Assembly (NCBI GenBank): GCA_016207095.1
Contig: JACQQF010000040.1
Coordinates: forward strand, 17,003-81,002
DNA: 64,000 nucleotides
DNA from: Candidatus Methylomirabilota bacterium
GTDB lineage: Bacteria; Methylomirabilota; Methylomirabilia; Methylomirabilales; Methylomirabilaceae
Reading direction: 5' to 3'
Shown here in pieces: positions 59,207 to 62,758 of this stretch. The number at the start of each line of letters is the position of its first letter. The stretch's first letter is position 1. The notes beneath the pieces were generated by a model. It saw only the letters and a program-made list of their open reading frames with translations. It was not told the origin of the DNA and did not search any database. Both the position numbers and the translations under genes were made by a program.

Positions 59207-60529
59207 CTACGCCCGTTTCGCCCTTAAGACCAATCGGATGGGCGTCCCTACAAACCCATACGCTCCTCGCAGTTGGTTGACGAGATAGCGTCGGTACGAG
59301 GCCGGGACTTTCTGAGGGTCACTGACAACGAGCAGAAAGGTGGGTGGTGGCCCGGCTGCCTGCGTAGCGTAGCGAAAGCGGATCTCTCGGTTGCCACCTG
59401 ATGGGGGGGGATGTTTTCGAACAGCCTCCCCGATGAGCGTATTGATCTCGTGGGTCGGGACCCGGCGCGAACGCGATGTCGCGACGGCAGTGAGCAGAGA
59501 GAAAAGCGGAGTGACCCCGAAGCCGGTGAGGGCCGAGACGAATGCAATCGGCGCATAGTCCAGATGCCTCAGACGGTCACGGATCATCACGGTGAGGTGC
59601 TGGTGAGCCTCGGGCCCTCGTGGAGCCAGGTCCCACTTGTTGACCACGAGGATCGAACCGCACCCAGCCTTCTGGACGTAGGCGGCGATCTTGGCGTCCT
59701 GCTCCGTCACCCCATCCGGCCCATCAAGGACGATCAGCACCACATCACAACGTTCAATGGCCCGCAGCGTCCTGAGTGCACTGAATCCCTCCAATGGCCA
59801 TTGGACCTTCGCACGCGAGCGGAGACCCGCAGTGTCGATCAGAACGTAATTGGTGTCTTGGTAGGAGAATGGGGTGTCGATCACGTCCCTCGTGGTTCCC
59901 GGCTGCTCACTCACAATCACACGCTCCTGCCCGAGGATCCGGTTAACCAGCGATGATTTTCCCACGTTCGGACGACCCACGACAGCGACTCGAACAGCCG
60001 TTTCCTCAGTCTCGTCAACCCCGGATGGCAGCGCGTCGACGATGAGATCAGCCAGTTCCGCAACCCCCAGTCCGTGCTCGGCCGATACCGGAACGACCTC
60101 GGCAAACCCCAGGCGAGAGAACTCTGGCACCAGCAGATCCCCTTGGGCCGCCCGATCGACCTTGTTGGGCACGAGAACGATGGATGCCTTGGCAATCCGT
60201 CGGAGCAACCTGGCAATCTCCAGGTCCAGCGGCAACACGCCCTCGCGGGCATCCACCACGAACACGATCAAGGCGGCTTCCTGAACGGCGCGGCGAACCT
60301 GCGCGAGCACCATGGCGGGGAGGCCCGTCTTGGCGCCGGGCTCGAGCCCTCCGGTATCGGCAAGGATGAACGTGCGGCCTTTCCAGCGACCCGTGGCGTA
60401 GTGCCGGTCCCTCGTCACGCCCGGCTCATTATGGATGATCGCCTTCCGGCGCCCCACGAGCCGGTTAAAAAGGGTCGATTTCCCCACATTGGGGCGTCCA
60501 ACGATAGCCACCACGGGAATGGGCGTCAT
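59207..60529 (-). CDS. der: ribosome-associated GTPase Der (EngA)
   Basis: Two tandem GTPase domains (IVGRPNVGKSTLFN ... VVGRPNVGKSSLVN) and a KH-like C-terminus. I trimmed the start to ATG 60529. Confidence 0.9.
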   Translation of the reverse strand: MTPIPVVAIVGRPNVGKSTLFNRLVGRRKAIIHNEPGVTRDRHYATGRWKGRTFILADTGGLEPGAKTGLPAMVLAQVRRAVQEAALIVFVVDAREGVLPLDLEIARLLRRIAKASIVLVPNKVDRAAQGDLLVPEFSRLGFAEVVPVSAEHGLGVAELADLIVDALPSGVDETEETAVRVAVVGRPNVGKSSLVNRILGQERVIVSEQPGTTRDVIDTPFSYQDTNYVLIDTAGLRSRAKVQWPLEGFSALRTLRAIERCDVVLIVLDGPDGVTEQDAKIAAYVQKAGCGSILVVNKWDLAPRGPEAHQHLTVMIRDRLRHLDYAPIAFVSALTGFGVTPLFSLLTAVATSRSRRVPTHEINTLIGEAVRKHPPPSGGNREIRFRYATQAAGPPPTFLLVVSDPQKVPASYRRYLVNQLRGAYGFVGTPIRLVLRAKRA

Positions 60530-60594
60530 CGACGTGTTGCCTTCGTGTTCATGCCCCTGTCCCACGACACCCGATCTCTCCTGACGGTTTCACC

Positions 60595-60623
60595 TTGCAG
60601 AGTAAGGGATTCCCGCCTACACT
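60595..60623 (+). promoter_or_regulatory. sigma-70-type promoter candidate for the HMA gene
   Basis: TTGCAG (60595-600), N17, TACACT (60618-23), about 40 nt upstream of ATG 60665. Confidence 0.3.
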
Positions 60624-60664
60624 ACCATTATACTGCGAAGTCGACCTTTTCGAGCGCAAACGCG

Positions 60665-60973
60665 ATGAAGCCAAAAAATCTTCTTGTCAACCCGGCAGCA
60701 ACGATCCTCTCTGATCGCCCGCACGGGTCCTCAACGCGACGCCGACGGAAGATCCTCGACGTGAAGGGGATGCTTTGCGGCCTCTGAGCAGATCGGGTAA
60801 GAAGGGCCCTGGAGGGGCTCGAGGGAGCCACTGCGGCTCGCGTGGACCTGGATACCGGACGGGCTGTTGTTGACTACCGCGAAGGGACCCTGACCGATGC
60901 CAAGGCGATCAAGTCTATTCAGGACACGGTGGTGCTGCCACACCTGCGCCGCTGGCTATCACGTCTCCCCTGA
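60665..60973 (+). CDS. heavy-metal-associated (HMA) domain protein with an in-frame TGA at the second Cys of GMxCxxC; candidate selenoprotein, alternatively a nonsense pseudogene
   Basis: ATG 60665 ...RKILDVKGMLCGL, then TGA (60785-87), then ADRVRRALEGLEGATAARVDLDTGRAVVDYREGTLTDAKAIKSIQDTV..., then TGA (60971-73). The joined 102 codons fit the HMA beta-alpha-beta-beta-alpha-beta pattern. GC-rich hairpins begin 16 nt after the internal TGA. Confidence 0.5.
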
Positions 60974-60989
60974 ACAGCGAGGTCTTCTT

Positions 60990-61523
60990 TCAGCGACTGA
61001 GAAACCTTGCTCCCCGCAGAACATACTCGAGCCCGGATAGGATCGTGATGGCTGCCGTCACATACATCAGAGGCGCCAGGTAAGGCCCCACGCCGCCCAT
61101 CACGCGTTCGAGCATCGTCCCCAACACGGTTGCCAACTGTAGCCCGGTCGTGAGCTTGCCCATCTGCGAGACGGAGACAGTGCTCTTTCCGATTGCGATG
61201 TATAAGACCAGGAAACCGCCGATGAGGATCAGATCGCGGCTCACGACGATAATAAATAGCCAGCGCGGAATCCGGCGAAGGTAGACCAGGGGCATGAACG
61301 CGGCAAATAGCAGGAGCTTATCGGCCAGGGGGTCCAGGATCATCCCCAACTCGGTGCGCTCGGCTCTGGAACGGGCGAAGAACCCGTCCAGCGCGTCAGT
61401 GATGCCAGCCAACAGGAAGGTGGCCAAGGCCAGCCTCCAGAACCTGTAGACGAGCAGGATCGAGATGACGGGGGCCATCAGAATCCGCAGGATCGTGAGG
61501 CTATTGGCGAGGTTCACCATCAC
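60990..61523 (-). CDS. pgsA: CDP-alcohol phosphatidyltransferase (PgsA-like)
   Basis: 177 aa with the motif DALDGFFARSRAERTELGMILDPLADK (D-G-x2-A-R-x8-G-x3-D-x3-D) and multiple TM segments. Confidence 0.8.
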   Translation of the reverse strand: MMVNLANSLTILRILMAPVISILLVYRFWRLALATFLLAGITDALDGFFARSRAERTELGMILDPLADKLLLFAAFMPLVYLRRIPRWLFIIVVSRDLILIGGFLVLYIAIGKSTVSVSQMGKLTTGLQLATVLGTMLERVMGGVGPYLAPLMYVTAAITILSGLEYVLRGARFLSR

Positions 61524-61612: not shown

Positions 61613-62758
61613 CTATCCTCGGACGGTTAACCGTGGAGCCGGTGCAGGTTCCACTGTCCGGCCATCCGTCGAGACAAGCACGTCCCGCAGCAGATCTCGC
61701 AGCCGATCGAGGCCATACCCCGTACGGGCAGAAACGGCTATACGTGGCGTCGAATCTGCAACACGAGCGAACGCCCGCTCAGCCCCCCAGGGAAGCAGAT
61801 CCACCTTATTATACACCTCCGCGACCGGCTTCCCGGAGAGGCCAAGCTCCTCCAGGATCGCGTCAACTGTCAGTTTCTGCTCCATCATCTGGGGATGACT
61901 TGCGTCGATCAGATGCGCCAGGAGATCAGCCTCATGCAGCTCTTCGAGTGTCGCCTTGAATGCCGCCACCAACTGCGGAGGGAGTCGCCTGATGAACCCG
62001 ACCGTATCTGAGAGCAGAAACACGAAACCGTCGGCGTTGGTCACCCGTCGAAGGACCGGATCGAGGGTCACGAAGAGGGCGTTATCCGTGCGAACACCTG
62101 AGTGCGTCAAGGCGTTAAAGAGGGTCGATTTGCCGGCGTTGGTGTACCCGACGAGCGCCACGATCGGGATGGCGTGGCGCCGCCTTGGCCGCCTCAATAG
62201 CGCCCGATGACGGCGGAGCTTCTCCAGATCGCCGCGGATCCTGGCCATGCGTCGGCGGATGGTCCGACGGTCGGTTTCCAACTGGGTCTCGCCGGGGCCA
62301 CGCGTGCCGATGCCGCCCCCCAGCCGCGAGAGATCGACCCCCCGACCAACCAGGCGGGGGAGCAGATAATCGAGCTGGGCCAGTTCAACCTGCAACTTGC
62401 CTTCCCGGGTCTTCGCGCGCTGGGCAAAGATATCCAGGATCAACGAGGGGCGATCGACGGTCTTGCGCCCGGTCAGCTCTTCCAGGCTCCGCTGCTGCGA
62501 TCCTGACAACTCTTCGTCCACCAGCAACAGGTCGATCGCCTCGCGCCATCTCTCCTTGATCTCCTCCGCTTTGCCCTTGCCGATCAGATAGCGAGGGTCC
62601 GGTGAGTCCCGCTCCTGCAGAATCGTCGCAACGACTGTGGCACCGGCCGATTCCGCCAGACGACCGAGCTCGACCAGCGATTCCTCGGCCTCCCAGCGGG
62701 GGGTTCGTTTCCTGTGGAGCCCGACCAGCAGCGCGCGTTCTCGCCCTTCACTCATCAC
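61613..62758 (-). CDS. hflX: GTPase HflX
   Basis: 381 aa with an HflX N-domain (ALLVGL...YLIGKGKAEEI) and a G-domain (LVGYTNAGKSTLFNALT...DTVGF). Confidence 0.9.
   Translation of the reverse strand: MMSEGRERALLVGLHRKRTPRWEAEESLVELGRLAESAGATVVATILQERDSPDPRYLIGKGKAEEIKERWREAIDLLLVDEELSGSQQRSLEELTGRKTVDRPSLILDIFAQRAKTREGKLQVELAQLDYLLPRLVGRGVDLSRLGGGIGTRGPGETQLETDRRTIRRRMARIRGDLEKLRRHRALLRRPRRRHAIPIVALVGYTNAGKSTLFNALTHSGVRTDNALFVTLDPVLRRVTNADGFVFLLSDTVGFIRRLPPQLVAAFKATLEELHEADLLAHLIDASHPQMMEQKLTVDAILEELGLSGKPVAEVYNKVDLLPWGAERAFARVADSTPRIAVSARTGYGLDRLRDLLRDVLVSTDGRTVEPAPAPRLTVRG

Follow-up and report, generated by a model that had tools for sequence, protein, structure and literature searches.

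Locus and domain organization of the interrupted HMA gene

The DNA analyzed here is a 64,000-nucleotide stretch of a Candidatus Methylomirabilota genome (the window; contig JACQQF010000040.1), and its plus strand carries a short gene for a heavy-metal-associated (HMA) domain protein whose reading frame contains one in-frame TGA. Read directly from the ATG at 60665, the plus strand encodes MKPKNLLVNPAATILSDRPHGSSTRRRRKILDVKGMLCGL up to the TGA at 60785-60787; 61 sense codons follow (ADRVRRALEGLEG...WLSRLP) before the TGA stop at 60971-60973, and the frame is otherwise uninterrupted. The first-pass annotation of this DNA had placed the internal TGA at the second Cys of a GMxCxxC metal-binding loop, with coordinates and sequence that hold on rereading; it had also counted 62 more codons past the TGA, and although the frame is indeed open there, that figure includes the stop. 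When the two parts are joined with the interrupted position (U41) written as Cys, the product matches the Pfam HMA family PF00403 with 47.9 bits (gathering score, 24.8; E value, 1.8e-12) over residues 31 to 87, on both sides of the TGA, in agreement with the earlier proposal that the joined frame forms a single HMA domain. In our reading, 60665-60973 is very probably an intact gene for a 102-residue cytoplasmic HMA protein, in which the UGA specifies selenocysteine (Sec) in place of the second Cys and a hairpin at 60804-60820 serves as the selenocysteine insertion sequence (SECIS).

Table 1. Features of the HMA locus and its neighbors in the window
Feature	Position	Strand	Basis or remark
HMA-domain selenoprotein gene (predicted), 102 residues	60665..60973	+	ATG start, UGA as Sec at codon 41, stop TGA
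N-terminal extension, M-K-x-x-N-L-[LF]-V-x-P-x-A ... RRRRK	60665..60754	+	Typical of this HMA subfamily; kept in orthologues
HMA domain (predicted ferredoxin-like fold), residues 31-87	60755..60925	+	PF00403 match
Metal-binding loop G-M-L-C-G-L-U (GMxCxxC with predicted Sec as second ligand)	60767..60787	+	Sequence reading; U aligned with second CxxC Cys of Cys forms
In-frame UGA, putative Sec codon	60785..60787	+	TGA invariant in orthologues; TGC in Cys forms L030 and L031
Candidate bacterial SECIS hairpin	60804..60820	+	Stem 60804-60810/60814-60820, loop GGA 60811-60813; or 6 bp with loop UGGAG
C-terminal tail, last HMA residues VVLP and basic HLRRWLSRLP	60926..60970	+	V-V-L-P-x-L-R-R invariant in orthologues
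Der	59207-60565	-	TIGR03594, 521 bits
PgsA-like CDP-alcohol phosphatidyltransferase	60990-61523	-	TIGR00560, 106.2 bits, just below the 109.1 cut-off
HflX	61613-62758	-	Neighboring gene

The segments outside the HMA core are shared beyond the immediate orthologues: the N-terminal extension is also found in Cys-form relatives, as an R-N/R-L-F-x-x-P motif, and the C-terminal V-V-L-P-x-L-R-R motif is recognizable in distant Sec and Cys forms. The N terminus of the protein is polar and basic; it lacks a hydrophobic stretch of the signal type, and the protein has no signal peptide. As the first-pass annotation had described, the sole entry at the gene in the mechanical list of open reading frames (ORFs) is a plus-strand ORF of 237 residues at 60074-60787, which fuses an antisense-of-der frame to the first 40 HMA codons; this ORF is an artefact masking the true start at 60665. 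The public records that we retrieved bear out its further expectation that automated annotation would miss or truncate the gene, which is either absent from them or split into N-terminal pieces of 40 to 72 residues and C-terminal pieces of 58 to 67 residues; gene callers would split it because the internal TGA is read as Sec.

The TGA triplet is otherwise an ordinary stop in this genome segment, ending 22 of the 44 long coding-like ORFs of the window; a reassigned genetic code, which the first-pass annotation had also dismissed, is thus ruled out, and recoding would have to be site specific. A scan of the window for further in-frame TGA codons between coding-like segments gave other candidates that resembled antisense frames or adjacent genes.

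The HMA gene stands alone on the plus strand amid minus-strand genes and is convergent with the pgsA-like gene. In the window clade, the protein ends nine codons early, at ...WLSRLP, whereas other Methylomirabilis lineages continue with ...LLPGTRRSPFSR. A remnant, TARSSFS(R/D), can still be read in frame past the stop in the window (60956-61000) and in the related loci L010 and L017 to L022; the convergent pgsA-like gene reaches into this stretch with its 3' end. In the lineages with the longer tail (L002 to L009), the called HMA and pgsA-like genes overlap by ~11 nucleotides (nt) at their 3' ends.

Conservation of the in-frame TGA and its Cys and Gly counterparts

When 5.8 billion protein clusters were searched with the joined sequence, fragments alone came back and no full-length product. 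The fragments comprised seven C-terminal halves starting with (M)RRALEGL and 74 to 91% identical, one N-terminal piece ending exactly at ...GMLCGL, and one shorter, partly out-of-frame piece. Fragment DNA and scans of genome and metagenome collections provided the loci of relatives, 26 in total with 22 distinct nucleotide sequences, which come from the JGI, NCBI, ENA, and Logan collections. The TGA occupies the same codon in all 26 loci (22/22 distinct sequences), and the architecture and the start codon are also kept; the locus order der(-)/HMA(+)/pgsA-like(-)/hflX(-) recurs wherever the flanks were examined. Named orthologue records belong to Candidatus Methylomirabilis sp. or to Methylomirabilota metagenome-assembled genomes (MAGs), the closest public contig being CAZCMC010000073.1 (97% identical). 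The codons beside the TGA vary synonymously (TGC/TGT for Cys38, GGC/GGT for Gly39, and CTC/CTT/CTG for Leu40). Three distant homologues likewise carry TGA at this column: L015, on a 5.17-Mb MAG chromosome and 43% identical; L027/L028, with GMICAL-TGA-ALRVKRALEGL; and L029, with GLLCDL-TGA-AHRVRRSLERL. The ORFs adjoining L015 and L027 have no Pfam match.

Selection on the two sides of the TGA was compared by the ratio of nonsynonymous to synonymous divergence (dN/dS; Nei-Gojobori method, 28 pairs from eight divergent orthologues). This ratio is 0.09 to 0.27 over the 40 codons before the TGA (dS, 0.2 to 1.7) and 0.08 to 0.32 over the 61 codons after it (dS, 0.2 to 1.1). By these ratios, the TGA is old, and purifying selection acts alike on the frames before and after it; the downstream frame has not decayed, a point on which the first-pass annotation had made the Sec reading depend. 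It had named as the competing explanation a pseudogene, in which a recent nonsense mutation turned TGC or TGT into TGA within an ordinary HMA gene. Such a change takes one substitution, and annotation pipelines indeed call fragments only; however, the TGA is invariant among the 22 distinct orthologous sequences and persists in homologues that are as little as 43% identical, the frame past it is unbroken and constrained at dS values of up to ~1, and contigs from four collections with distinct sequences are not one misassembled sequence. A conserved TGA with selection on both sides rules out a recent nonsense mutation, and we give the pseudogene virtually no chance of being the correct explanation; resequencing of the TGA is moot, since 22 independent distinct sequences carry it.

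Exhaustive profile searching, for which the C-terminal half of the protein was used, brought up Cys forms of the family. This search gave more short proteins starting just past the TGA column, two of which (P0016 and P0017) are TGA forms at the DNA level, and the others are likely to be TGA forms too. It also gave full-length relatives of 105 to 136 residues (for instance, P0025, P0055, P0063, P0064, P0077, P0081, P0090, P0094, P0105, and P0108), which consist of an R-N/R-L-F-x-x-P segment, an HMA domain with G-[LM]-[VL]-C-x-x-C-A, and a V-[VI]-[LF]-P-x-x-R-R tail. P0063 aligns with the joined window protein over residues 1 to 102 at 41% identity (BLASTP E value, 4e-20), and U41 falls on the second CxxC Cys of P0063, as it does in P0064, P0025, and others. 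Comparison of the Sec set with the Cys set by hhalign gave an E value of 1.9e-32, and in the DNA of the Cys forms L030 and L031 the Sec codon is TGC. The orthologue comparison proposed in the first-pass annotation, which asked for Cys or TGA at this column, thus returned both, TGA in the split forms and Cys in the full-length ones.

The AlphaFold model of P0063 (mean predicted local distance difference test [pLDDT] score, 83) superposes on the HMA domains of PacS, ATP7B, MerP, and CopZ with template modeling (TM) scores of 0.75 to 0.83 on the target and a root mean square deviation of ~1 Å over ~61 columns. In this model, the last strand of the fold is not called by DSSP; extra N-terminal β-strands lie beside the HMA sheet, and the C-terminal tail is helical.

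Downstream of each of two independent Cys forms, and overlapping it, lies a gene for a xylose-isomerase-like TIM barrel (Pfam AP_endonuc_2; L030:404-913; L031:1104-2000; L032:1082-1714). The pairing of a Cys form with an AP_endonuc_2 gene recurs and is absent from the Methylomirabilis loci.

A third state of the column is found in L033:132-602 (ENA ERZ27256499, k141_1042110), a syntenic orthologue of the Sec forms L027/L028. With the codon equivalent to U at positions ~360 to 362, it reads GGA TCC (Gly-Ser), whereas L027/L028 read TGA GCG (Sec-Ala), and it is called as an uninterrupted gene of 156 residues that retains the hairpin sequence GAGCCCUGGAGGGGCUG. Judged from this alignment, Gly may have naturally taken the place of Sec in L033, at the position of the second metal ligand.

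Candidate SECIS hairpin and the decoding of the UGA

The first-pass annotation had drawn a hairpin from GGGCCC (60804-60809) and GGGCTC (60815-60820), and this element is present, best drawn with 7 bp and a GGA loop. RNAalifold, applied to 14 sequences, gave as their consensus a 7-bp stem (G-R-G-C-C-C-U/R-G-G-G-C-U-C) closed by GGA; the folding energy ranges from -7.7 to -10.7 kcal/mol across all 22 sequences (window, -9.8 kcal/mol). The published bacterial SECIS model (PMC13188914, Fig. 2A) has a loop of 3 to 9 nt with a G in its first two positions, a stem of 4 to 16 bp, a distance of 16 to 37 nt from the UGA to the loop, and a minimum free energy of -7.5 kcal/mol or lower. The hairpin lies within all of these bounds (3-nt loop GGA with the G present, 7 bp, 23-nt spacing, and the above-described energy), and the alternative drawing with loop UGGAG fits the usual loop pattern of the model, N1-G-[G/U]-N-N2 (PMC13188914).

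Codons 48 to 52 (GCC CTG GAG GGG CTC), which encode part of this hairpin, are nearly frozen at synonymous sites, with a mean pairwise difference of 0.04 compared with 0.30 elsewhere in the gene. Both Leu codons and the Gly codon within this block have a single form, whereas every other conserved Leu or Gly column uses two to four codons, and the sole variants of the hairpin all keep pairing (A-U/G.U, C-G/U.G, and U.G/U-A). L015 has the same 17-nt hairpin, with one base changed from G to A and still paired, despite 43% protein identity; L029, with different residues there (RSLERL), forms a register-shifted hairpin, GGAGCC-UGGAAC-GGCUCC, whose loop lies 22 nt past the UGA. The hairpin is thus present in every TGA form, as the first-pass annotation had required of the Sec reading, and no qualifying hairpin was found in L030 and L031, the two Cys forms checked. 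Elsewhere, the hairpin core GCCCTGGARGGGC (two mismatches at most) is matched no more often than expected by chance.

A second hairpin, GAGCC (60825-60829) with GGCTC (60835-60839), which the first-pass annotation had offered as an alternative, was rejected as part of the SECIS; it is absent outside the window clade. It has 5 bp and the loop ACUGC, and Ala55 is encoded by GCC in the window clade versus Val (GTC) elsewhere. Because it is not conserved, this second hairpin is probably incidental.

A conserved stem-loop immediately after a conserved stop would also suit a regulatory device, for example, a 40-codon leader peptide whose termination, together with the hairpin, controls a downstream ORF; counted on the same side are scans around the gene with sigma-70-like promoter and intrinsic-terminator consensus sequences, which found nothing. 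However, the two halves make up one HMA domain, with a Pfam match that crosses the stop, the Cys-form homologues are uninterrupted, and there is no plus-strand gene downstream to be controlled, the next genes being convergent. We consider a regulatory device extremely unlikely.

With respect to the decoding machinery, Candidatus Methylomirabilis oxyfera is listed among Sec-utilizing organisms with six known selenoproteins in Table S2 of a survey (PMC5029168) that describes SelD, SelA, and SelB as the queries for its Sec trait. For one Methylomirabilota MAG, the number of selenoprotein genes predicted is reported as 63 (PMC13188914, citing Deng et al. 2026), and Methylomirabilota carry Sec-type [NiFeSe] group 4 hydrogenases (PMC13582414). 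From these publications, at the level of genus or phylum, we infer the presence of selA, selB, selC, and selD in the genome of the window.

Several observations weigh against the assignment of a Sec-containing metal site. No tRNA gene was detected in the window by ARAGORN, and no tRNA-Sec in the window or the 22 loci; tblastn with Escherichia coli SelA, SelB, and SelD gave no match in the window or in 200 kb of retrieved loci. These negatives are uninformative, because the window and 200 kb are too small a sample of a genome. A comparable hairpin follows 5.3% of all TGA triplets of the window, and one at least as stable follows 2.8%; folding z-scores of the region downstream of the UGA, in a sequence of 61% G+C, are not significant (-0.5 to -1.0), and stability is for this reason not used as an argument here. 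Given this background and the weak z-scores, the hairpin alone is weak evidence, and the comparison with relatives carries the case. Among the orthologues, there are no double compensatory changes in the hairpin, and because it overlaps the conserved residues RALEGL, part of its conservation is due to the protein. Rfam gave no match at the gathering threshold over the whole window or at E values of up to 10 on 60600-61000, which says little, as the search was made without checking that Rfam holds a bacterial SECIS model. With Gly at the Sec column, L033 implies that at least one lineage can do without the second ligand. Finally, the Methylomirabilis locus has no metal-transport neighbor (der, pgsA-like, and hflX genes only), so that the function proposed below is a guess from the fold.

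Two further ways of accounting for a conserved TGA were considered together: a split gene, composed of a 40-residue peptide and an independent C-terminal half, and low-level read-through by a near-cognate Trp or Cys tRNA. In seven relatives, C-terminal ORFs starting with GTG or ATG have been called, and Sec insertion at this UGA is itself something that we infer from sequence, which leaves some room for read-through of another kind. However, many orthologues, like the window, have GTA where gene callers used GTG as a start in some relatives; the putative start is therefore not conserved, and the conserved ADRVRRALEGLEGATAAR would be made solely via read-through of the TGA. Nor is one half of an HMA fold stable by itself. 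Moreover, the stop lies exactly on the column of the metal-ligand Cys, it travels with a hairpin of the SECIS model that the Cys forms lack, and the lineage is a published Sec user. Taken together, these points leave a split gene or non-Sec read-through a small chance, and the reading of the TGA as Sec in the metal site of an HMA protein is strongly supported and almost certainly correct on comparative grounds; the CxxU selenoprotein proposed in the first-pass annotation is upheld by the conserved TGA, the full-length Cys homologues, and the retained hairpin.

Proposed function and relation to known metal-site selenoproteins

In the proposed mechanism, the hairpin, which is itself coding sequence and has its apical loop 23 nt past the UGA, would act as a bacterial SECIS and recruit SelB-GTP-Sec-tRNA(Sec), and the ribosome would insert Sec rather than terminate. 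Sec insertion would give the full ferredoxin-like HMA fold, in which a soft metal ion could be held between the Cys38 thiolate and the Sec41 selenolate, and the proposed role is that of a small metallochaperone or metal buffer. CopZ/Atx1-type chaperones and the N-terminal domains of P-type ATPases serve as the analogy by which the HMA protein most likely binds a soft metal in a two-coordinate manner; Cu(I) is our first choice, and Hg(II), Cd(II), and Zn(II) are possible alternatives; a redox role of the CxxU pair is possible as well. In the distant locus L029:4001-7363 (GCA_016192655.1, JACPTR010000168.1), the Sec-HMA gene is directly upstream of genes for an AhpC/TSA-thioredoxin-like protein (200 amino acids [aa]) and for a P-type ATPase with HMA and E1-E2 domains (819 aa). 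A gene with a ChrB domain is close by, and this locus is the sole metal-transport context seen for the Sec-HMA family.

Sec in HMA-type or related metal sites has already been cataloged, in a UxxC P-type ATPase, UxxU proteins, MerP, MerT, and the MerT/CopZ fusion NF045683. NF041115 (UxxU_metal_bind), listed as a putative mercuric reductase with a UxxU motif (PMC13188914, PMC9312934), resembles the window protein as a small stand-alone HMA-like metal binder with Sec in a CxxC-type loop, and it is among the two best NCBIfam matches of the window protein (E values, 4.6e-11 and 2.4e-12). However, the window protein scores 42.7 to 46.8 bits against a cut-off of 95 and is not a member; its motif is CxxU instead of UxxU, and it has the extra NLFVxPxA and VVLPxLRRWL extensions. 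A selenoprotein of the E1-E2 cation-transporting P-type ATPase family (TIGR01525) is reported with a UxxC motif (Zhang & Gladyshev 2007, PMC1976440), which is presumed to lie within its N-terminal HMA domain. It shares with the window protein the character of a metal-transport selenoprotein, but there Sec replaces the first Cys of a large membrane ATPase, whereas the window protein would have Sec at the second Cys of a soluble chain of 102 residues without an ATPase domain.

MerP is likewise an HMA-fold metal binder reported with Sec, although the published tables on it give no Sec position. The window protein reaches only 24.3 to 25.3 bits with the MerP model TIGR02052 (cut-off, 92.55) and has neither a signal peptide nor a mer-operon context; nevertheless, the M. 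oxyfera orthologue may have been counted under the MerP label. The predicted fold and the GMxCxxC loop are shared with CopZ/Atx1 (NF033795, NF033794, and NF047957; PDB 2qif, 6ff2, and 1fd8) and with the HMA domains of PacS and ATP7B (2xmw, 4a48, and 7si6), which are the best structural matches of the P0063 model, and two-coordinate binding of a soft metal is likely to be a further common feature by analogy. Both ligands of all these proteins are Cys, however; the window protein has extra terminal segments and scores 40.4 to 46.6 bits with the CopZ models (cut-offs, 85 to 95), and there is no copA or csoR neighbor in Methylomirabilis. Term searches of a 2026 catalog of 119 selenoprotein families and subfamilies returned no PF00403 or "metal-associated" entry and no CxxU among the HMA-type entries, with the limit that the M. 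oxyfera orthologue may be within the 6 or 63 predicted genes. The window protein is best seen as an addition to the known metal-site selenoproteins and possibly represents a new subfamily. Because SelB/SECIS recoding and the fold are both standard, a known pattern is extended and no new one is opened; among the selenoproteins already known, the newcomer is genuine but fairly ordinary.

A farther-reaching reading is tentative, and we hold it to be less probable than not: the gene may be the founding case of an uncataloged stand-alone CxxU HMA subfamily with its own N- and C-terminal extensions, occurring in Sec and Cys forms in Methylomirabilota and in other MAG or metagenome lineages, in which the selenolate tunes the handling of Cu(I). 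Methylomirabilis is a copper-dependent methanotroph that oxidizes methane with nitrite. In this organism, tuning of this kind could serve copper supply or buffering for particulate methane monooxygenase (pMMO) and for the enzymes of nitrite and NO.

For annotation, the finding turns split or missed ORFs into one selenoprotein gene, and with it a stand-alone CxxU form of the HMA domain would join the UxxC ATPases, the UxxU proteins, and MerP. The natural Cys and Gly counterparts would permit a direct test of how the selenolate affects metal affinity and redox stability. For Methylomirabilis, the gene would add one more member to the selenoproteome of a phylum that is reported to have very large selenoproteomes.

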